Positions 5,938-17,671 of a stretch of 20,847 nucleotides of DNA are shown here, in pieces; position 1 is the first letter of the stretch, and each line of letters opens with the position of its first letter. The DNA comes from Promethearchaeia archaeon (lineage in GTDB: Archaea; Asgardarchaeota; Lokiarchaeia; Sigyniarchaeales; SOKP01), in contig JAHQWL010000077.1 in the NCBI GenBank assembly GCA_029856155.1, positions 1-20,847 of the forward strand, given 5' to 3'. The notes below the pieces were generated by a model, which did not search any database, was not told where the DNA came from, and saw only the letters and a list, made by a program, of their open reading frames with translations. A program made the translations under genes and the position numbers.

Positions 5938-6480
5938 ATGAAGAATTTTGAGGAATTTCGATTTAAGATAGTTGTTGTTGGAGATGGAGCAGTAGGTAAG
6001 ACCTCCTTAATTAAAAAATTCACGAAGGGTACGTTTGAAAAGGATTATGTAAAAACCATTGGAGCTCAATTTTCAAAATATAACAAGGAATTTAATGGAG
6101 ATATGGTTAGATTATTATTCTGGGATATAGCAGGTCAAGATGATTTCAATTTTCTACATCACCTGTTTTATAAAGAGGCTAAAGCAGCAATAATTGTATA
6201 TAGTCTTGAAGAAAATGAACTTGGTCAAAATAGCTTTACACATATAAAGAATTGGCATGAAGTAGTAGAAAAAAATTGCGGAAATATTCCCATTGTTTTA
6301 TTTGCTAATAAAGTTGATTTAGTGGATGAAAACAGTATAAATATATCAAAAATCCGAAAAGTTGTTAATGAACATAATTTTTTAAATTTTTTTTTTACGT
6401 CAGCAAAAACAGGCCAAGGAGTAGTTGAGGCATTCAATACAATAATTGAGCAATTATATTCAAAATTTAAAACTTTGTAA
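5938..6480 (+). CDS. Rab-like small GTPase (Ras superfamily)
   Basis: G1 GDGAVGKT, G2 KTIG, G3 WDIAGQ, G4 NKVD, G5 TSAK. RabF-like motifs IGAQF, RLLFW and FYKEA. No C-terminal prenylation cysteines. Confidence 0.95.
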   Translation: MKNFEEFRFKIVVVGDGAVGKTSLIKKFTKGTFEKDYVKTIGAQFSKYNKEFNGDMVRLLFWDIAGQDDFNFLHHLFYKEAKAAIIVYSLEENELGQNSFTHIKNWHEVVEKNCGNIPIVLFANKVDLVDENSINISKIRKVVNEHNFLNFFFTSAKTGQGVVEAFNTIIEQLYSKFKTL

Positions 6481-6592
6481 CAATGATTTTAGCCTCATTT
6501 CTTTATTAATAGGAAATAAGAATTCACTCTTTTCCTATAATTGATATAAAAAAAATATTGGTTTTTTTAAATCTATTTTTGAATTATCAATT

Positions 6593-7186
6593 GTGATTAT
6601 CGATCATTGTGATAAGACAATCAGTATAAAAATTGTGTATTTTGGTCCAGCTCTTTCGGGTAAGACTACATCAATAAAGGCTCTATTTTCTGATTTTGGA
6701 AAAGATGAAGAAGTATATAGTATCGAAAGTACTGTAGATAGGACCCTTTTTTTTGATTATGGAACAGTAACCTTTCAAAACCAAGAATGGGCTCTTAAAA
6801 TCCATATTTATACTACCACAGGGCAAGATTTCTATTTTATTACTCGACCTATCACTTTAAGAGCTGTAGACGGAGTGATATTCGTTATTGATTCTCAAGA
6901 AGATGTTTATGAGAGAAATTTGACTTCTTGGCGTGAATTAATCTCTTACTTTAATGAATCAATTGAGGATCTTCCAATAATCATCGCTTTTAACAAACAA
7001 GATTTAGAAGATAAATTTAACTCTATAGATTTCTTGAAAGAAATCGGGTATTATAACTATAAAAATATTGATACCAGATTTACGAGTGCCTTAAAAGGAG
7101 AAGGTGTTTTAGATTGTTTTGAAGATATTTTAAGATTAATATTAAAAAAATATTATAATCACAAACTAGTTTCTGTAATAAATTGA
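6593..7186 (+). CDS. mglA: MglA-family small GTPase
   Basis: KIVYFGPALSGKTT, the MglA signature DRTLFFDY with its intrinsic Arg, TTTGQ in place of DxxGQ (cf. MglA TVPGQ), NKQD, SALKGEGV. GTG start. Confidence 0.88.
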   Translation: MIIDHCDKTISIKIVYFGPALSGKTTSIKALFSDFGKDEEVYSIESTVDRTLFFDYGTVTFQNQEWALKIHIYTTTGQDFYFITRPITLRAVDGVIFVIDSQEDVYERNLTSWRELISYFNESIEDLPIIIAFNKQDLEDKFNSIDFLKEIGYYNYKNIDTRFTSALKGEGVLDCFEDILRLILKKYYNHKLVSVIN

Positions 7187-7363: not shown

Positions 7364-9634
7364 TTGAAGATAAAGAGCTATATATTCATAATTTCAATTA
7401 TAGTGGGTTTTATATTTGGTATAGTTATAAGTATAGATTTTTCCCATGCCCAAGAAAATGGAGAATCTCTAATAATTTCTTCAAATTTTCAGATGATCGA
7501 ATTTTCAGAGGATCATGGGACGATAGAAAATTCAACATCAGTGAATATTGATCTTCTATCTCCAAATTGGATATTAACAGAAATAGAACTTAATTTTACT
7601 AGTATTAGGATGAATTCTGAAATAAAGATAATTGAAGAAGAAGCAAGTGGTTTCGAAACTTTAAGAGGTAATTCTAATGAAATTTTAGGGATGCAAATAA
7701 ATATTACAGAACCTACGATTATTTATTCGATAGATATATTTGGCTATAAAGCGATTAAAACTACTACCCCAACACCTGTATATGTCCGAATAGAGGGATG
7801 GGATTCTATTGATAGAAGACCAAATGGAGTAACTTATAGTGTTCCCTTCATACTAAATATGACAGAAGGAACCCCTCAATGGAATAAACAAACATTTCAA
7901 TTTCCAGTCTATTTATCTTCAGGATTATATTGTTTAGTGCTTGATGGAACTGGGATAAGTTGGAATGATAAATACTACTGGTATATCAATAATGATAATC
8001 CAAGATCACAATTATCTATGTGTTGGTATGATGATAACTTAGGTGAATGGCATAATAGGACAGGAGATGTGTTTCTCCATAAGATAAAACAAAGAGTTAA
8101 TCGATCATATTTTCCTTCTAAAATTAACATGACTGCCGAAATTGGCAGCAATTCCTATACTATTATAGATGGAATTGAATTAGGATCCGGAAAGCTTTCT
8201 ATAGAAAGTCTTGATTTCTATACGGGGGGATCTATGATAAATATTTTCATTAAAAATAATTCATCTATTACTTTAGAATTGAATTTTAATTATCATGTTT
8301 CTCTTAAGCATATGATTTTCTCAGAAGGATCCGTATTATTAAGGGAAAATTTGGAAAATGAATGGACAGTCAATCCTGAATTTATAAGAGTATATTCAAA
8401 TTACTCGATAAAATTTTATTATCCAAAAAGTTGGTATAATATTACAATCTATAGAAATGGACTTGATGTTACAAACGATGTAGATCTTAATAACACTGAC
8501 AACTTTATTTTTATTTCAAATAACACTTTAAAAGAGGGAGAAATCTGGTTAATATCTGCATATTCTCCTAACATTGATTTTACATTAAATATAGGAAAGA
8601 CGGGATATGAACCATTGCAAAATTTGAAATTCTCCGTTAATGCACCCGTTATTCAAGGTAAAATAACTTATATATTGATGGATTCCTTAGGTTTTGAAGA
8701 ATTTAAGGAAACAAAACAGGTTACTTCTCAAGAAACGTTATTTTGTTGTAATATATCTGCAAAGCCAGTTACGGGAATATATAAAGCTTACTTATTCTGG
8801 TATAATAACACTGATGGAGGTGTTAAAACTCAAGAATTTTTAATTAGTGTTCCTTTTACAATACCACTCGAAATGGTTTTAGATATTATTTTACTTGTGA
8901 CTATTATTTTAGGAGGGAGTATTTCGGGTTATGTCTTAGTAAAAAGAAAAAGAAGGATTAACGCCGAACGTCAACAAAAAATAATCAATAAATTCATAGA
9001 TGCCTTAAATCTACACTATTTTATTCTTTCTGATAAAAATTCTGGACTAACAGTTTATGAACAATTCTTTACAGGTAAATATGTAGATAGTTCTTTAATA
9101 TCTGGATTCTTACAGGCCGTACGAGCTTTTGGAATAGAATTAACACATGCTAACATAGAAACTCAAAGTGTCAAATTGGAATATCAGAATTCAAAGATTT
9201 TAATGTCAGATTATAAAGACTCTAGAATTATTCTGATTATGGAGGAAAATCCTTCTCAAGACTTTATAGATTCAATAAATGCTTTGTCATTTGATCTCGA
9301 AGAAAAATTTGGACACTTATTTGAAGATTTTGATGGAGATATTACTCAATTCTGTGAAATAAAAGGTTTACTCGATCTTCATCTTCACACTTCCTTAATC
9401 TACCCTTTAAAAGTCATAACACAAAATAAAAAAATTACTTCAGACGAACAAATAATTATAAATCGAGCCTTAAAAATAATGAAAGAAAAAAATACAGATC
9501 ATTTCTTTGTATCGTCCCTATATGATAAACAGAAAGAATTTCAATTAAATGATGCTGAAGCAATTCTAAATTTAATTGAAAAAAGAATATTTCAACCTAT
9601 AAATAAAGACTTTAACTTAATTAAAAAAAACTAG
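7364..9634 (+). CDS. Membrane receptor-like protein: N-terminal signal/anchor, beta-rich ectodomain, TM helix, cytoplasmic longin-like domain and possible winged-helix tail
   Basis: Hydrophobic N-terminus; more than a dozen N-x-S/T sequons before the TM; TM (VLDIILLVTIILGGSISGYVLV) followed by KRKRR; longin pattern LHYFILSDKNSGLTVYEQFF...DSSLISGFLQAVRAFG...FEDFDGDITQF. TTG start. Confidence 0.85.
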   Translation: MKIKSYIFIISIIVGFIFGIVISIDFSHAQENGESLIISSNFQMIEFSEDHGTIENSTSVNIDLLSPNWILTEIELNFTSIRMNSEIKIIEEEASGFETLRGNSNEILGMQINITEPTIIYSIDIFGYKAIKTTTPTPVYVRIEGWDSIDRRPNGVTYSVPFILNMTEGTPQWNKQTFQFPVYLSSGLYCLVLDGTGISWNDKYYWYINNDNPRSQLSMCWYDDNLGEWHNRTGDVFLHKIKQRVNRSYFPSKINMTAEIGSNSYTIIDGIELGSGKLSIESLDFYTGGSMINIFIKNNSSITLELNFNYHVSLKHMIFSEGSVLLRENLENEWTVNPEFIRVYSNYSIKFYYPKSWYNITIYRNGLDVTNDVDLNNTDNFIFISNNTLKEGEIWLISAYSPNIDFTLNIGKTGYEPLQNLKFSVNAPVIQGKITYILMDSLGFEEFKETKQVTSQETLFCCNISAKPVTGIYKAYLFWYNNTDGGVKTQEFLISVPFTIPLEMVLDIILLVTIILGGSISGYVLVKRKRRINAERQQKIINKFIDALNLHYFILSDKNSGLTVYEQFFTGKYVDSSLISGFLQAVRAFGIELTHANIETQSVKLEYQNSKILMSDYKDSRIILIMEENPSQDFIDSINALSFDLEEKFGHLFEDFDGDITQFCEIKGLLDLHLHTSLIYPLKVITQNKKITSDEQIIINRALKIMKEKNTDHFFVSSLYDKQKEFQLNDAEAILNLIEKRIFQPINKDFNLIKKN

Positions 9635-10832
9635 CTTCAGAAACAGGAGATTGAATCCTAATTTTCTGTTGACTATTATCTTCCAATACTGAAATTAATG
9701 CAGTAATATTTTGCTTTGATTTATAAAAGATTTCTTTCTCTTCACCCTTTTTCCAAGTATTAAAACCAGTTAATTGTGAAGCAGTTTCGAATAACCCTTC
9801 TTGCAACCCTGAAATCACCACAGTTACTCCTTTTAAATCATTTTTAGAAATGTTTTTTATTTTCATTATGTACTTCTCAATATCAGAATCAATGGATAAT
9901 ACTTTATAGATCTTCTGGAATTTTGAAATCCCATCAAATAAGGAAGATGCGACAGCAGAACTTTCCGAAAATAAATCTACACCAACTTTTTCCTCAGAAA
10001 TTGGTCCTGTAGAAATTGTTATTGGTATTTCAAGTTTTATTGGTTCTAATCCATACTCTGGTTTTTTCTTTCCAATGATTAGTAAACTCCACTTAGTATA
10101 CGCTCCGTACCTAAACCCAAATTGTTCTTTCTCAGAGGGTGACCATAAATAATTATGACTTGGTTCTGCAACTTCTGGAACCTTTAAAAGTAAAAAATCT
10201 TTCTCAAAATTCTGTGTTCGAACATCTCCTGCAATTGCAGGAGGAAGTTCCTCGACTTTACGACAATTCTGACCATATGCTTCACAATAACAAACCAAAT
10301 TTGCATTCTGAAGAAGTCTTATTTCTAATTGTTTAAGTTCATTTGAAGAATAACCGATTTTAATAGTTTCTCCTGGCTTAAAAATATCTTTTGTTAAAAG
10401 AATGTTTAAACCCGAAATTGAAAATGAGATTGGTTTTGGGGATTTTGCTTGAAATCCAGAATTTCTTGCTTTAATCTCAATATCATGAGTTTTATTAATT
10501 ACTAAATCATCTTCAGGATTAATTGGATTAGGCTGTCTTAAATTTAATTTTAGAGTATAATTTAGATTTCTATTCTTTATTGTAGGGACAAAGTTAGTTT
10601 TAATTAAGAGAGATTTTTCACGAACATATTCACCTGGTTCAAATTTGCCTTTACTAAATATTTCCTCTTTTGAAATTTGAAGTTCTTTAGCACAAGGAGG
10701 ATTAGTAATTAATTGAATTCCACTCCAAAAAATTTCAGCCTCTTTTTCAAAATTGTACTTTGTTCGAACGTTTAACTTATCCCCGATAAAGACAGAACCA
10801 TTATTTAAATCCTTTAACTCTAATTTTACCAA
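9621..10832 (-). CDS. Arrestin-fold (alpha-arrestin/Vps26-like) protein with extra C-terminal Ig-like domain
   Basis: N-domain pattern GKFEPGEY...NFVPT...LNYTLKLNL; C-domain pattern ILLTKDIFKPGETIKI...LEIRLLQ...LKVPEVAEPS...KWSLLI...IKLEIPITIST, resembling arrestin_N/arrestin_C consensus. Overlaps the convergent gene by 14 nt. Confidence 0.7.
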   Translation of the reverse strand: MVKLELKDLNNGSVFIGDKLNVRTKYNFEKEAEIFWSGIQLITNPPCAKELQISKEEIFSKGKFEPGEYVREKSLLIKTNFVPTIKNRNLNYTLKLNLRQPNPINPEDDLVINKTHDIEIKARNSGFQAKSPKPISFSISGLNILLTKDIFKPGETIKIGYSSNELKQLEIRLLQNANLVCYCEAYGQNCRKVEELPPAIAGDVRTQNFEKDFLLLKVPEVAEPSHNYLWSPSEKEQFGFRYGAYTKWSLLIIGKKKPEYGLEPIKLEIPITISTGPISEEKVGVDLFSESSAVASSLFDGISKFQKIYKVLSIDSDIEKYIMKIKNISKNDLKGVTVVISGLQEGLFETASQLTGFNTWKKGEEKEIFYKSKQNITALISVLEDNSQQKIRIQSPVSEASFF

Positions 10833-11065: not shown

Positions 11066-11782
11066 ATGAATAACAGTTTGGATGAAAAAATCAAAGCAAT
11101 TCTGTTTGATTTAGATGGAACACTATTAGATATAGATTTAGATAAATTTATATCTAATTATTTAAAATTATTAGCCCAAAGTGTAGCCCATATCGTATCG
11201 TCAAGAAAATTTATTTCAAAAATACAAAAAGCATCTAGAGCTGTGGAAGAGAATAAGGGATACACCACCAATGAAGAAGTATATGCTAATGTATTTTTTC
11301 CATTGGAGGGGTATACTCGTGAAACAATTGAACCATTTTTTGATAAATTTTATGAACAAGATTTTTCCAAACTCCGTCAATACACTCGAAAGAAACCTGA
11401 AGCAAGATATGTTGTTCAAACTGCTTTCGATAAGGGTTATGATGTTGTTATTGCTACAACACCTATACTTCCGGCAACTGCAATCGAACAACGCTTAGAA
11501 TGGGCAGGTGTAGCCGATTTTCCTTACCGTCTAATTACCACGATCGAGAATAGTAATGCTACCAAATCTTTAACACACTTGCTTTATTACGAGCAAATCT
11601 TAGATAAAATTGGATACCCAGCGAATGCTTGTTTAATGGTAGGAGATGATGAAAAGGACATGATTGCTGCCCGTCTTGATATACAAACTTTTTTCATTGA
11701 AGGTAAAAAAACAGAATTTGCTAATCATATTCCAGAGCCCAAATATAGAGGGTCTTTAGCTGACTTAAAACCTTTACTTTAA
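11066..11782 (+). CDS. HAD-superfamily hydrolase (phosphatase)
   Basis: Motif I ILFDLDGTLL, motif II VIATT, motif IV MVGDDEKD. Confidence 0.92.
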   Translation: MNNSLDEKIKAILFDLDGTLLDIDLDKFISNYLKLLAQSVAHIVSSRKFISKIQKASRAVEENKGYTTNEEVYANVFFPLEGYTRETIEPFFDKFYEQDFSKLRQYTRKKPEARYVVQTAFDKGYDVVIATTPILPATAIEQRLEWAGVADFPYRLITTIENSNATKSLTHLLYYEQILDKIGYPANACLMVGDDEKDMIAARLDIQTFFIEGKKTEFANHIPEPKYRGSLADLKPLL

Positions 11783-11797
11783 TAATGTTGGGTTAGA

Positions 11798-11968
11798 TTA
11801 AGTTTTTTTCCATGTATAAGCTAACTTACTCATATTATAGATGGGTGGTGGAGGATCCTCAATTAACAATTTTCCAAGACATTTTGCACACAAATAAACT
11901 TCTTTGTTCTTATCCGTGAAAAAACACATGTACAAATTCTCTTGATGAAGGCATCCTTCGCACCTCAT
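11798..11968 (-). CDS. 56-aa CxxC...CxxC zinc-finger microprotein with PPPPIY motif (not in the ORF track)
   Basis: Manual translation: MRCEGCLHQENLYMCFFTDKNKEVYLCAKCLGKLLIEDPPPPIYNMSKLAYTWKKT*. Strong archaeal SD AGGTGA just upstream of the ATG. Fills an otherwise empty gap and is more GC-rich than the flanking intergenic DNA. Confidence 0.8.
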   Translation of the reverse strand: MRCEGCLHQENLYMCFFTDKNKEVYLCAKCLGKLLIEDPPPPIYNMSKLAYTWKKT

Positions 11969-12177: not shown

Positions 12178-13026
12178 ATGCATGAACTTATATTTTTCAG
12201 TATGTTTTTATTAGTTTTGATAAGATTAATAGGATTTATTGTCTCTGTGAATTTTTATTATGAATCAAAATCTAATACATACATTTATTTCACTACTGGG
12301 TGGTTTTGTTGGGTTACAGCAGGAATTGTTGCCTTAATTTCTGCAATTACTAATAATCAAATACAAGAAAGCTTTTTTCTTTTAATGAATTATATTATCG
12401 GACCCATAGCAATATTTTTATTAGGATCTGGACTAAGCTCCTATTATATTAAAATTTCTTCCAATAAAATTAAATTACTCTCTGTGTTATTAATAGCTTT
12501 TCCAATAATTCTTAATTTTTCTCTGGGACTAGTTCCTGTTGCGTTATATGCCCGGATATCTCAGTTTCTTGGAATTATTACAATCTTCTTATTACCTTTT
12601 TTAAGGTATAACTCCTTTAAGAAAAGAATTGGGAAAAGCATTAAATGGTACTATCTAACTTGCTTTTCAATAATTCTCTATATACCTTTAGCAATTTTAA
12701 GTATGATAACTTCTATATACTCTGGTTCATTCCAGAGTCAAGATATTACCATAATCATTGGAGCTTATACTTCTATCATTATAATGACTATTTTAGTTAT
12801 AGCTTTTATAATTCATTTAGAATACACTATAACCAGTGAACAAGAGAAACAGTTGAAAGATAAGTATTCTCACGACTTAGGAAATATTATGCAGGTAATT
12901 TATAGTTCTGCTGATCTTTTTAAAAGAATTGGCAAGGAAGAGAATATTGAGAATGATAAATTGGATTTAATAGAAAAAAAATGTAAAGAAGCAGCTAAAT
13001 TAATAGACGAAATAAGAAACCTCTAA
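12178..13026 (+). CDS. 7TM membrane sensor with HisKA (DHp) domain but no HATPase domain
   Basis: Seven hydrophobic segments followed by the H-box YSHDLGNIMQVIYSSADL and a second DHp helix. The protein ends there and the next gene starts after a 26-nt gap. Confidence 0.82.
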   Translation: MHELIFFSMFLLVLIRLIGFIVSVNFYYESKSNTYIYFTTGWFCWVTAGIVALISAITNNQIQESFFLLMNYIIGPIAIFLLGSGLSSYYIKISSNKIKLLSVLLIAFPIILNFSLGLVPVALYARISQFLGIITIFLLPFLRYNSFKKRIGKSIKWYYLTCFSIILYIPLAILSMITSIYSGSFQSQDITIIIGAYTSIIIMTILVIAFIIHLEYTITSEQEKQLKDKYSHDLGNIMQVIYSSADLFKRIGKEENIENDKLDLIEKKCKEAAKLIDEIRNL

Positions 13027-13052
13027 ATAATTTATAAGATAAAAATCTATAG

Positions 13053-13424
13053 ATGATTATCATAGTCAATATCTTAATAGTTGATGATGATGTGGACATT
13101 GTTAACCTTTTCGAGCAATTCTTAAAGTTCAAAGGTCATACCATAGTTGCTAAAGCTTCTAATGGTGAGGAAGCGTTAGAAATTTATAAAAATTTTAAAA
13201 ACACTCCAGACATAATTATAATGGATCACAGAATGCCTTTGAAAAATGGATTGGAGACAACAAAAGAAATTTTAGCAATTAATCCTGATTGTAAGATTAT
13301 TTTTGTAAGTGCGGATTATAGTGTCAGAGAAAAGGCTTTAGAAATGGGAGTAATTGAATTTTTAGAAAAACCTATAGATTTTAGCACTTTATTTAATATA
13401 ATTGAGAAATACAATCATAATTAA
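13053..13424 (+). CDS. Stand-alone CheY-like response regulator receiver
   Basis: ILIVDDD acidic pocket, PDIIIMDHRMPLKNG (phosphoacceptor Asp), FVSA, FLEKP. Confidence 0.95.
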   Translation: MIIIVNILIVDDDVDIVNLFEQFLKFKGHTIVAKASNGEEALEIYKNFKNTPDIIIMDHRMPLKNGLETTKEILAINPDCKIIFVSADYSVREKALEMGVIEFLEKPIDFSTLFNIIEKYNHN

Positions 13425-15196: not shown

Positions 15197-16105
15197 TTAA
15201 TCCGTATGTGCGGATATAATCAAATCAGCAAAAAGCTTCATGTCATTTAACAGCATATTTAATTTATCTTGGGATTCCCTATCCAATTCTCCTGATTTCA
15301 TTACCAACACAGAAATGATGTATTTAAAAATATGAAGCTCAATTTCCTTTCCATCAGCATCTCGACCACCAAACTTTGCAGAATCTGCCATAAAAATATT
15401 TTCCCGCACTGTATTACACGCATTAATAAAATCTCTTAAATCTCCCCTCAATGTTAATCCACTACTGACACCTTGAACATTATGAACGATGACATTACCT
15501 GAAATATCAGCGATAATGACTTTAGCTTTAATTTCATCAAGCTGCTTCTCAGCTTTTTCTACATGTGCTTTTAAATCAGCATATTCTGAAATTAAAACAT
15601 CTCTGAATACCTTTGCTAATTTGTCTTCCTCATAAATACTTGTGAGCATATAATCAAAATCATAATCTTTAAAAATATCTAGGAAAAGATTCTTTGCGTT
15701 TTTAACGTTTGTATCAAGTAGCTCTTTCTGAAAATTTTCAGTATCATACTTATGAAGGAACAAGAAAACCTTTGGTTTTTCATTCATCTTACGATAAATA
15801 TCCAATAGATTTATAAAATAATCCTTTGCTTCTTGAAATGTATTTGGGTCATGTAAATCGACTATAGGTATAAGAATATCTGTTCCACGAAAGACTTCTG
15901 GCTTTTCAGTATACTCTTTTCGAAATTCCTCTTGCCCTCCAAAATCAAAGATTCCAACTTGTAAACCAAGGAAGGGATGTCTTCTTGTTTCATAAAGAAT
16001 TGTTGGCGCAAGACCTTTTGTCTCTTCTGGCCGTTTTGCAGCAAAAGCAACAGAATAAACGCTTGTTTTTCCACATCCACTTAGTCCAACTAAACTAATT
16101 TTCAT
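15197..16105 (-). CDS. Rag/Gtr1-like GTPase with probable C-terminal roadblock domain
   Basis: GLSGCGKTS...F...ETKGLAPTI..E.....FLG......FDFGGQ; His-type G4 HKYD and G5 TSIY are Rag-family hallmarks. ~120-aa C-terminal domain starting KVIIADISGNVI. Confidence 0.88.
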   Translation of the reverse strand: MKISLVGLSGCGKTSVYSVAFAAKRPEETKGLAPTILYETRRHPFLGLQVGIFDFGGQEEFRKEYTEKPEVFRGTDILIPIVDLHDPNTFQEAKDYFINLLDIYRKMNEKPKVFLFLHKYDTENFQKELLDTNVKNAKNLFLDIFKDYDFDYMLTSIYEEDKLAKVFRDVLISEYADLKAHVEKAEKQLDEIKAKVIIADISGNVIVHNVQGVSSGLTLRGDLRDFINACNTVRENIFMADSAKFGGRDADGKEIELHIFKYIISVLVMKSGELDRESQDKLNMLLNDMKLFADLIISAHTD

Positions 16106-16183: not shown

Positions 16184-17671
16184 TTATTCTTTTGGTGCTA
16201 CTTTTAGCGTTCTAGAAAAGATTTTCCCAAACGCTTCTGTTGAAGCCTCAACTAATACATTAGCTACAACTGGTTCGCCAGGTTCTCCTTCCAAAGGATA
16301 ACCAATTTCGATTGTTTCAAATGGAAATAATTCTGTGATAGTTGTTATCCAGGGTTTTTTCTCAAAAAGTTCTTCAACGGTTACTATTCGAATTTTCATA
16401 TCTTCTAAAACATAACCTATAGTATTCGTCAATGAAATAGTTAGAATTTTCCCTTCTTCATTTAACTCTTTTGAAACACTCAAAAATTTTCTAGTTCCTA
16501 AAGGAGGTGTTACTTCAGCTTGTTCTGTTTCTGGCTTAGTTTCAATCCTTGGTTCTTCTTCAGGCGCATCTCTTACAATAAACACCTTTCGTTTTCGAAC
16601 AGTGTATTGAGATACTTTTTTGAGTTTTGCTAAAAACAATACCGCGTTCAAATTTATAGCATTGAAAGGCTCTATTTTGAGATACCCCTTTTCTGCTGCA
16701 TCTTCCATAATTTCAGCGCCAATACCGCTTCTAGCAAATACGGTATTTTTATTTGCTCCAGAGCCCACACTACCTACGCTAATGTCTGAATTTTCAGAGG
16801 TTAGATCTAAACAAAAATTACAACTCGATGATTTAAACTTATCTAATTGCTTAATTGTATATGATTTAAAAGGCTCTCCTTGTGGATCATAGTATAAGTG
16901 AAACTTTCCTTTGTTTATATCCATTTTTTGAACTTTTGACAAGTCAATCCCCTCGCTCTCAAAGAATGGATAAATAGCCTCAGGAGCAAATGAATCCATA
17001 CAGAATAATCCAATCTTTAAAACATGGCACCGCATAAAATATTTTAACATACCCGTTGGGCTATCAAACATTTTAGAAACAGCATCTATATTACATGGAG
17101 TACCCACAAATGCAATTGATCGAAAATCTTGACGTACAGCATCCATCAAAGCTTCAACTGTTTGAGAATGACTATAAATGGAACCCGAAGCTTTAATAGC
17201 ATCTTCTTTACTTGTAATGATTTGGGCTATTGGATGCCATGGTTTACTAGGATTTCTCATTGTCACAACAGCAGCGTCGATTAAATGCTCATCAAACAAG
17301 TAGCACAGTAAACTTGTTACTGTGCCACCATCCTGACCTCCAATCACTTCTGGGATGTTTGTATTTGCTACATAACCTGTTTTAAAATCTCCCATGAGTT
17401 GATAAGGATCGGTAATAGTTCTTGGACACTGATTATAACAGATACCACAACCTGTACATTTACCTATAAGCTTAGGTTGTCCCGCTAACTCATCCCAAAT
17501 TAAAACAGGGCACACTGCTGCGCACGTTCCGCATTCAGTGCATATTCCCGTTCGAACAATCTCTTTCATGAGCATTCCGAACGAATCTTTCTTCCCTTCA
17601 AGCTTCTTCTGAATATATTCAAACGAGTACTCGTAAGGCGTTTCAGTTTGATCAGTCTTATCTTCTGTCAT
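16184..17671 (-). CDS. frhB: FrhB/FdhB-family (coenzyme F420 hydrogenase/dehydrogenase beta subunit-like) Fe-S flavoprotein with N-terminal 2x[4Fe-4S] ferredoxin and a C-terminal Ig-like extension
   Basis: CTECGTCAAVCP, CTGCGICYNQCP, GQDGGTVT, VGTPC, IGLFC, SCNFCLD, DISVGS; then an acidic/Pro linker and a ~100-aa extra domain. Confidence 0.9.
   Translation of the reverse strand: MTEDKTDQTETPYEYSFEYIQKKLEGKKDSFGMLMKEIVRTGICTECGTCAAVCPVLIWDELAGQPKLIGKCTGCGICYNQCPRTITDPYQLMGDFKTGYVANTNIPEVIGGQDGGTVTSLLCYLFDEHLIDAAVVTMRNPSKPWHPIAQIITSKEDAIKASGSIYSHSQTVEALMDAVRQDFRSIAFVGTPCNIDAVSKMFDSPTGMLKYFMRCHVLKIGLFCMDSFAPEAIYPFFESEGIDLSKVQKMDINKGKFHLYYDPQGEPFKSYTIKQLDKFKSSSCNFCLDLTSENSDISVGSVGSGANKNTVFARSGIGAEIMEDAAEKGYLKIEPFNAINLNAVLFLAKLKKVSQYTVRKRKVFIVRDAPEEEPRIETKPETEQAEVTPPLGTRKFLSVSKELNEEGKILTISLTNTIGYVLEDMKIRIVTVEELFEKKPWITTITELFPFETIEIGYPLEGEPGEPVVANVLVEASTEAFGKIFSRTLKVAPKE

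Follow-up and report, generated by a model that had tools for sequence, protein, structure and literature searches.

A divergent arrestin-clan protein family with four invariant cysteines and a shared C-terminal domain, linked to a Rag-like GTPase in Asgard archaea

Eukaryotic alpha-arrestins act under nutrient and energy signalling (TORC1-Npr1, AMPK/Snf1), and TXNIP is functionally tied to thioredoxin and redox homeostasis (PMC9105457). The longin proteins FLCN and Nprl2/3 regulate Rag GTPases (background in PMC10933270; 10.1101/2020.10.19.343400). The eukaryote-like repertoire of Asgard archaea includes both Rag-like GTPases and proteins with arrestin domains. Arrestin-domain proteins were reported in Lokiarchaeote CR-4 (Zaremba-Niedzwiedzka 2017, as cited in 10.1101/2021.04.02.438162), where the arrestin is split into separate N and C genes, and several Asgard studies describe Rag-like GTPases partnered by longin or roadblock proteins (10.1101/2021.04.02.438162; 10.1101/2025.11.06.686947; PMC10933270; 10.1101/2020.10.19.343400), including a described GTPase-roadblock architecture (PMC10933270). 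Here we describe P0001, a 403-amino-acid protein encoded on a 20,847-nucleotide stretch of DNA from a Promethearchaeia archaeon (positions 1-20,847 of contig JAHQWL010000077.1, assembly GCA_029856155.1; the whole stretch is called the window below). P0001 is a cytosolic arrestin-clan member whose divergence keeps it below the Pfam thresholds. It carries four invariant cysteines and an additional C-terminal domain (CTD), and its gene belongs to a conserved cluster with genes for a Rag-like GTPase (RagL) and an FrhB-like iron-sulphur (Fe-S)/flavin protein. On balance, we take P0001 to be the arrestin-clan component of a Rag-like GTPase module that is assembled through the shared CTD. In the literature searched, we found no description of an arrestin family with this cysteine set (Cys4) and CTD, of the shared CTD, or of an arrestin-Rag-FrhB cluster.

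The arrestin character of P0001 is most apparent in its predicted structure. An AlphaFold 2 model built from 23 sequences (predicted local distance difference test, pLDDT, 83.8; predicted template modelling score 0.71) has beta domains at residues 1-121, 135-273 and 309-396, with disorder at residues 281-305. When this model was searched against PDB with Foldseek, Vps26C, Vps26A and Vps26B ranked first (E 2.6e-11 to 1e-8, ∼310 columns), followed by ARRD-6, beta-arrestins, TXNIP and Rgp1. VIA-align, which is independent of Foldseek, matched Spo0M to the N-lobe with a Z-score of 14.7 (root-mean-square deviation, rmsd, 1.8 over 116 residues) and ARRDC3 to the N-lobe with a Z-score of 13.3. Both lobes were spanned by Vps26 (Z 13.5 over 239 residues) and ARRD-6 (Z 12.9 over 258 residues), and arrestin scored Z ∼12; two-domain matches outside the arrestins had an rmsd of at least 13. 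A shape search of the ESM Atlas returned only the protein's own family and clusters annotated with Arrestin_N/C, Spo0M or Vps26, and the nearest named clusters were bacterial Arrestin_N/Spo0M proteins (template modelling score 0.66 by target). As modelled, P0001 thus consists of two tandem beta-sandwich lobes in the arrestin-type arrangement, the structural hallmark of the arrestin clan (Pfam CL0135, which groups Arrestin_N, Arrestin_C, Vps26, Spo0M and Rgp1).

Sequence evidence leads to the same clan, at a distance. Pfam and NCBIfam scans of P0001 and of its three parts gave nothing above threshold. Arrestin_N (PF00339) does not match P0001, and Arrestin_C (PF02752) matches the isolated C-lobe at 13.1 bits against a cut-off of 27.7 (E 0.13), although the alignment takes in positions 9-134 of a 137-position profile. 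Within a set of 23 diverse family members, ten match Arrestin_C at E ≤ 1 (best E 3.4e-5), and nine orthologues match it in whole-genome scans. When PDB sequences were searched with the family profile, the top match was Caenorhabditis elegans ARRD-6 (E 0.006), whose alignment lies where the C-lobe canonically begins. The strongest link is to recognised arrestins of the same phylum. A phylum-wide Arrestin_C scan supplied a comparison set of 12 Asgard proteins of ∼290 residues, of which all 12 pass Arrestin_N and 11 pass Arrestin_C. Aligned to these Pfam-positive arrestins with hhalign, the P0001 family gives a probability of 95.5% and an E-value of 1.4e-8 over 243 collinear columns that span residues 4-271, and hence both lobes. 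The family profile also directly matches one Pfam-positive arrestin in another Asgard genome (G072, E 3.9e-6). Sequence homology of P0001 to recognised arrestin-clan members is therefore detectable, while the protein stays outside the curated Pfam arrestin and Spo0M families, whose gathering thresholds it does not reach. Scans of the source genome for Arrestin_N and Arrestin_C gave no match at E ≤ 0.1, nor did Spo0M (PF07070), for which the controls were positive; Vps26 (PF03643) was likewise without a match, but so were its control genomes, which leaves that scan uninformative. No Pfam-detectable arrestin-clan gene was thus found in the source genome, and P0001 is the only arrestin-clan protein found there.

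Much of this had been anticipated by a sequence-only reading of the window, made by a model from the letters and their translated open reading frames (ORFs). The ORF at 9621-10832 is as described there (403 residues, minus strand), and its TTG start is matched in position by orthologues that begin there with M. The arrestin-N-like and arrestin-C-like patterns which that reading saw do correspond to a two-lobe arrestin-clan protein, although the curated Arrestin_N, Arrestin_C and Spo0M models that it proposed to apply are not reached. Its proposed Foldseek comparison indeed recovers ARRD-6, TXNIP, beta-arrestin and Vps26. The linker and extra third Ig-like domain are borne out by the model, and the IKLEIPITIST segment lies at residues 265-275. 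The terminal FF is present in P0001 too, but within the alignment it is limited to close relatives.

The family escapes Pfam yet is highly conserved in Lokiarchaeia-type genomes, and it is unannotated because no Pfam arrestin model reaches threshold. A word-indexed search retrieved 426 homologues of P0001, all of them Asgard and all unnamed or labelled ‘hypothetical protein’, from metagenome-assembled genomes labelled Promethearchaeota, Loki-, Thor-, Hod-, Hermod- or Odin-. The best 120 of the 426 are 73-93% identical to P0001, and none has a precomputed Pfam domain. An exhaustive search of 50%-identity representatives yielded 41 clusters, among which the three-domain architecture of ∼390 residues is retained down to 24% identity. 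The family alignment comprises 23 sequences, with a lowest identity of 21%.

P0001 can be set against each of the described arrestin types. The Pfam-positive Asgard arrestins (∼280-330 residues) share its phylum and two-lobe architecture. However, they pass the Pfam thresholds, lack the Cys4 set and the CTD, occur chiefly in families such as f9, and no Rag-like operon is reported for them. The prokaryotic, cytosolic arrestin-like protein Spo0M (Alvarez 2008, PMC2515105) is the best structural match to the N-lobe, but its Pfam model does not match P0001, and it has neither the Cys4 set, nor a CTD, nor a GTPase linkage. Vps26 and Vps26C, cargo-selective subunits of retromer and retriever (Vps26 with Vps35 and Vps29 as partners), are the top Foldseek matches, and the likeness extends to short inter-lobe loops and the absence of an N-lobe helix, at 10-14% identity and with the CTD as an extra domain of P0001. 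ARRD-6 stands for the alpha-arrestins at the top of the profile search, whereas the PPxY motifs with which alpha-arrestins recruit Nedd4/Rsp5-type ligases are absent, as is their long disordered C-tail; the 403 residues contain no PPxY, and PP dipeptides occur only in NPPC and ELPPAIAG. Visual and beta-arrestins have an N-lobe alpha-helix I and a fold-back C-tail with clathrin/AP2 motifs. P0001 instead has a disordered linker and an Ig-like domain, and DSSP assigns no helix of four or more residues to either lobe of the model.

A distinguishing feature of the family is its cysteines. C47, C181, C183 and C190 are invariant in all 23 aligned sequences, and they account for four of just 13 invariant positions. 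The Pfam-positive Asgard arrestins lack all four in the hhalign alignment. Three of them lie in the CYCEAYGQNC loop (residues 181-190) that the sequence-only reading had picked out as a possible metal-binding insertion; the loop is conserved beyond chance in its cysteines, and the set gains a fourth member, C47, in the N-lobe. C47 follows the fourth strand of the N-lobe and C-x-C-x6-C follows the fourth strand of the C-lobe, so by strand order both loops sit at the lobe ends closest to the inter-lobe linker. These positions correspond, we presume, to the finger-loop and C-loop side of the arrestin central crest. From this topology, we predict that the two loops lie on opposite sides of the inter-lobe cleft, facing one another. 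The four cysteines would then probably clamp the lobes together, either as a tetrathiolate site for Zn or Fe or as a redox-sensitive site. TXNIP uses cysteines in redox chemistry; those of P0001 are, as we take it, not at the TXNIP positions.

The other distinguishing feature, the CTD, is not confined to the arrestin protein. It follows an acidic linker in which position 287 is L, F or V in 21 of 23 sequences and position 288 is F in 19 of 23. Taken alone, the CTD has a generic fold, with matches to GH2 Ig-like domains (Z 10.3), archaeal pilin-like folds (Z 9.8) and FlaF/G (Z 8.9), and a language-model feature search gave weak generic Ig-like neighbours (CARDB, Transglut_C; scores <0.8). When the arrestin family profile was run against its own genome, however, a second match appeared inside the FrhB-like ORF of the window. 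Alignment of the arrestin CTD to a profile of four FrhB-like orthologues with hhalign gave a probability of 95.5% (E 1.3e-8, 79 columns). The homology emerges only with profiles, as BLASTP between the window's two CTDs was not significant (E 2.5). The two CTDs have in common a K/L-N-x-S motif whose Asn is invariant, an F-E motif and a conserved Glu.

In the 4.1-Mb source genome, a CTD-only profile detects the domain in three proteins and no others: the arrestin protein (E 5e-33), the FrhB-like protein (E 9.8e-21) and a 349-residue protein encoded on another contig (E 1.3e-8). The family of this third carrier has no Pfam match, and a language-model feature search with it returned unnamed Asgard clusters only. 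Its model (pLDDT 70.8) comprises a longin domain of beta-beta-alpha-beta-beta-beta-alpha order, a helical hairpin, a disordered linker and the CTD. The N-terminal domain matches folliculin from the FLCN-FNIP2-Rag-Ragulator complex (Z 10.4, 143 residues), Sec22 (Z 10.2) and GATOR1 (Z 9.8), and further SEA subunits and a Lokiarchaeal longin. These Z-scores are moderate, and all matches listed are of longin-type fold. The longin-CTD protein is a candidate regulator of the Rag-like GTPase. Separately, a 450-residue ORF truncated at a contig end (L047:4983-6335, minus strand) carries the CTD close to its N-terminus, at residues 62-138 (E 7.7e-16), and may represent a fourth CTD architecture.

The genes for two CTD carriers form a cluster with RagL. 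Across deep divergence, the FrhB-like gene with its CTD, RagL, and the arrestin gene with its CTD follow one another in this order on one strand. All three are directly adjacent in seven loci (L004, L005, L043, L044, L045, L046, L049), and RagL and arrestin are adjacent in two more (L047, L048); of the 12 other loci examined, 9 thus have RagL immediately upstream of the arrestin gene. These nine loci come from families f1 (one genus), f3, f4, f10, f20 and f21 and from metagenomic contigs, and the directly adjacent three-gene order on one strand is found in at least five Asgard families. Adjacency is kept between lineages whose arrestin proteins share only 24-35% identity. In seven of the cluster loci, the gene for the longin-CTD protein is found within 3-9 kb; in L005 it immediately follows the arrestin gene. 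In the window, the minus strand carries all three genes, but there the arrestin gene is separated from RagL by ∼4.4 kb of other genes (RagL and the FrhB-like gene are 4.4-5.4 kb away), and a 60%-identical relative shows a split of 5.6 kb. The source genome has about a dozen strong Gtr1_RagA-type paralogues, and a chance neighbour within 6 kb is therefore expected at ∼3% in one genome. Some loci have additional redox genes nearby. In one distant lineage (L006:8001-14535 and L007), the arrestin-CTD gene lies 10 nt upstream of a row of HdrA-like, FlpD, FrhB, HdrC-like and HdrB-like genes; an HdrC/B-like gene adjoins the arrestin homologue in L008; and second FrhB paralogues stand beside the cluster in L044, L048 and L049.

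RagL and the longin-CTD protein invite comparison with the eukaryotic Rag-Ragulator system. RagL passes the Gtr1_RagA cut-off, its orthologues are 49-76% identical with the motifs GxxGxGKT, DFGGQ, HK[YF]D and TSIY, and ∼110 further C-terminal residues, about the size of the roadblock-type dimerisation domain that Rag/Gtr GTPases carry there, are conserved beyond the GTPase domain. We take the HKxD and TSIY motifs to resemble those of RagA. The third CTD carrier adds a longin domain that resembles those of FLCN and of GATOR1/SEA. The eukaryotic system differs in that it has no counterpart of the shared CTD, and the TOR kinase is not part of the Asgard cluster. Moreover, we know of no eukaryotic Rag component that has an arrestin fold or is of FrhB type.

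The arrestin-CTD gene and RagL also travel together across genomes. Among 301 genomes of the phylum, sorted into 30 families, full-length arrestin-CTD proteins occur in six families: f1 (58 of 68 genomes at any score, 55 full-length), f3, f4, f10 (5 of 5), f20 and f21 (6 of 6). None was found in f7 (0 of 28), f9 (0 of 76) or f14 (0 of 19). A high-scoring RagL orthologue occurs in exactly the same six of the 30 families. Within f1, RagL is present in 51 of 56 arrestin-positive genomes, whereas full-length RagL is found in none of the 10 arrestin-null genomes (six have no RagL match and four have N-terminally truncated matches). This co-occurrence is strong qualitative support for the linkage and is not a statistic. 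The distribution is complementary to that of the Pfam-positive arrestins of ∼290 residues, which occur in 48 of 76 f9 genomes, where the Cys4+CTD family was not found. Conversely, the Arrestin_C matches in f1 are nearly all sub-threshold hits to the Cys4+CTD family itself.

Taken together, these features suggest how the module might work. Most likely, the CTD would be a common docking or oligomerisation module of the arrestin protein, the longin protein and the FrhB-like enzyme, and its carriers would assemble with or around one orthologous RagL. The arrestin protein could then serve as adaptor or effector, the longin protein as a likely regulator of the GTPase, and the FrhB-like enzyme as a likely redox or energy input, with the Cys4 site clamping the arrestin lobes. 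There is a suggestive parallel, no more than an analogy, with eukaryotes, in which nutrient and energy signalling acts on alpha-arrestins and longins act on Rags. In a bolder form, the CTD would join an arrestin adaptor, an FLCN/Nprl2-like longin and an FrhB enzyme on RagL into a redox- or energy-sensing Rag module with arrestin output, a prokaryotic precursor of Rag-controlled arrestin adaptors in which Cys4 would be a redox or metal switch of the inter-lobe conformation. This fuller picture is speculative and, as a whole, doubtful. Nonetheless, the conserved linkage to RagL, the shared CTD and the Cys4 site together offer a concrete hypothesis for the role of an archaeal arrestin, one that bears on the origin of eukaryotic trafficking and nutrient-signalling modules. 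All parts of the module are small soluble proteins, and the proposed complex is thus directly testable.

Several points weigh against a CTD-assembled module in which the arrestin protein has a central place. Binding between the arrestin protein, RagL, FrhB-CTD and longin-CTD is something that we infer; a complex prediction of arrestin with RagL, GTP and Zn scored 0.00, which says nothing about binding in either direction. Because relatives among the genomes are not independent of one another, the counts make the co-occurrence look better supported than it is. In the window and its genus, ∼4.4 kb of unrelated genes separates the arrestin gene from RagL, and the arrestin gene has its own AT-rich upstream region; co-transcription is therefore not required. 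Finally, FrhB-CTD and a RagL persist in family f24, where no arrestin-CTD was found; the arrestin is therefore accessory rather than core. There, FrhB-CTD adjoins a more divergent RagL (∼400 bits) on the opposite strand (for example G211:C52:96208-97441 and G253:C300:20186-21432), suggesting that FrhB-CTD and RagL are the core pair.

The same neighbourhood could be read differently. The main rival, which we consider unlikely, assigns P0001 to an oxidoreductase of FrhB/Hdr type, as an accessory subunit that possibly bears metal. The arrestin sandwiches would then be a scaffold, Cys4 an Fe or Fe-S centre, and RagL a factor in enzyme assembly or regulation, with no cargo-adaptor role. That the cluster begins with an FrhB-like Fe-S/flavin gene, that four cysteines are invariant and that Hdr, Mvh and Frh genes flank in distant lineages (L006, L007, L008; FrhB paralogues in L044, L048, L049) would all fit such an enzyme. 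However, f24 has FrhB-CTD and RagL but does without the arrestin, and in f1 the arrestin gene has moved off the FrhB gene yet stays 73-93% identical. To our knowledge, no Fe-S motif combines C-x-C-x6-C with a single distant Cys. Metallocentre assembly is a role of SIMIBI-class GTPases, and we know of no Rag-type GTPase that acts as a metallocentre assembly factor. Quite unlikely, in our judgement, is a stand-alone Spo0M-type arrestin-like protein of unrelated function, for which the linkage to RagL and FrhB would be inherited gene order without meaning. Among single domains, Spo0M is indeed the closest structural match; bacterial Arrestin_N/Spo0M proteins make up the nearest named Atlas clusters; and the operon is broken in the window's own genus. 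Inherited order alone sits poorly with direct adjacency that persists at 24-35% arrestin identity, with arrestin and RagL in the same families and arrestin-null f1 genomes that lack full-length RagL, and with a CTD common to three proteins of the neighbourhood.

The sequence-only reading had pointed elsewhere, to an adaptor for a receptor encoded next door or for a nearby seven-transmembrane protein. Arrestins and Vps26 are cargo adaptors in eukaryotes, and the arrestin gene is indeed tail-to-tail with the gene for a 756-residue single-pass membrane protein, overlapping it by 14 nt at the 3′ end, an arrangement also seen in L009, L015 and L016. Yet the 756-residue gene adjoins the arrestin gene in only 3 of 30 other f1 loci. 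Most loci of the genus lack it, as do all loci outside f1, so the 756-residue neighbour was rejected as a partner; the conserved partners are RagL and the FrhB-like protein. The supposed seven-transmembrane protein is a multi-pass protein with a HisKA-like H-box segment, and a stand-alone receiver-domain gene follows 26 nt downstream (the pair spans 12178-13424, plus strand). It is part of a two-component system and not a GPCR-like (G-protein-coupled receptor-like) receptor, and in other lineages it is unlinked to the arrestin gene. That P0001 serves the cytoplasmic tail of either membrane protein is thus very unlikely. Least credible of all is that P0001 is no arrestin homologue but simply three generic Ig-like domains in tandem, the outcome that the sequence-only reading had itself named as contrary to its proposal. 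The silence of Pfam and NCBIfam would agree with this, and carbohydrate-binding modules and GH2 Ig-like domains do reach Z 10-12 against the N-lobe. What was found instead is a two-lobe model that aligns with Vps26, ARRD-6 and arrestin over 239-258 residues, where non-arrestin two-domain matches have an rmsd of 13 or more, a collinear two-lobe profile match to Pfam-positive arrestins, and an Atlas search in which each named row belongs to the arrestin clan. The preferred reading remains an arrestin-clan component of the RagL module, and the features on which it draws are collected in Table 1.

Table 1. Coordinates of P0001, its parts, the linked genes and other features (window positions unless a locus is named)
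Feature	Position	Strand	Description
P0001, whole gene	9621..10832	minus	ORF, TTG start, 403 residues; arrestin-clan protein with extra C-terminal domain
N-lobe, residues 1-125	10458..10832	minus	arrestin-N-like beta sandwich; model, Spo0M/ARRDC3 structural matches, hhalign over residues 4-271
C-lobe, residues 135-278	9999..10430	minus	arrestin-C-like beta sandwich; sub-threshold Arrestin_C match, ARRD-6 top of PDB profile search
Acidic disordered linker, residues 279-305	9918..9998	minus	pLDDT <50; [LFV]-F motif in DLFSE at 9963-9977
CTD, residues 306-398	9639..9917	minus	Ig-like; common to FrhB-like and longin-domain proteins (hhalign, profile scan)
Cys47, R/N-P-C motif	10692..10694	minus	NPPC in P0001; loop after fourth N-lobe strand; invariant in 23/23
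C181-x-C183-x6-C190 loop	10263..10292	minus	all three Cys invariant; pLDDT ∼63; candidate metal or redox site with C47
RagL (P0163)	15197..16105	minus	Rag-like GTPase, 302 residues; Gtr1_RagA 84.7 bits against cut-off 22, E 8.3e-24
FrhB-like protein (P0162)	16184..17671	minus	Fe-S/flavin protein, 495 residues; FrhB_FdhB_N, FrhB_FdhB_C, Fer4; CTD ∼16199-16504
Longin-CTD protein	L012:7099-8148		349 residues; own genome, contig C91; longin, helical hairpin and CTD
Ras/Rab-like GTPase, second small GTPase and 756-residue membrane protein	5938-7186 and 7364-9634	plus	gene row, also in L009
HAD-family hydrolase	11066-11782	plus	divergent from arrestin gene
Multi-pass membrane protein	12178-13026	plus	ends in histidine-kinase H-box (SHDLGN) segment, no ATPase domain
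56-residue ORF	11798-11968	minus	two CxxC pairs and PPPPIY; beside HAD gene, ∼1 kb from arrestin gene

The window has ∼29% G+C, and its gene content suggests an Asgard source: several small GTPases of Ras-, Arf- and Rag-like type are encoded, as are TPR proteins and the FrhB-like protein. A hint of transcription, weak at most, comes from metatranscriptomes, whose libraries may contain DNA: one 220-nt contig is identical to positions 10504-10723 within the arrestin gene, and short contigs from relatives fall in arrestin, RagL and FrhB genes, while stretches without contigs carry no information. The HAD-family gene next to the arrestin gene is present in 28 of 29 f1 loci of the genome scan (L014-L042) and not outside f1, a far steadier linkage than that of the 756-residue gene. 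The 56-residue ORF beside it, with its zinc-finger-like CxxC pairs and PPxY, was considered as a trans-acting PY adaptor in the manner of alpha-arrestins and rejected, as it is conserved only in the genus and PPxY is lost in several copies (P-YQIY, PSQIY). Its 65-95% identity across 13 loci of that genus makes it probable that the ORF is a genuine small gene.

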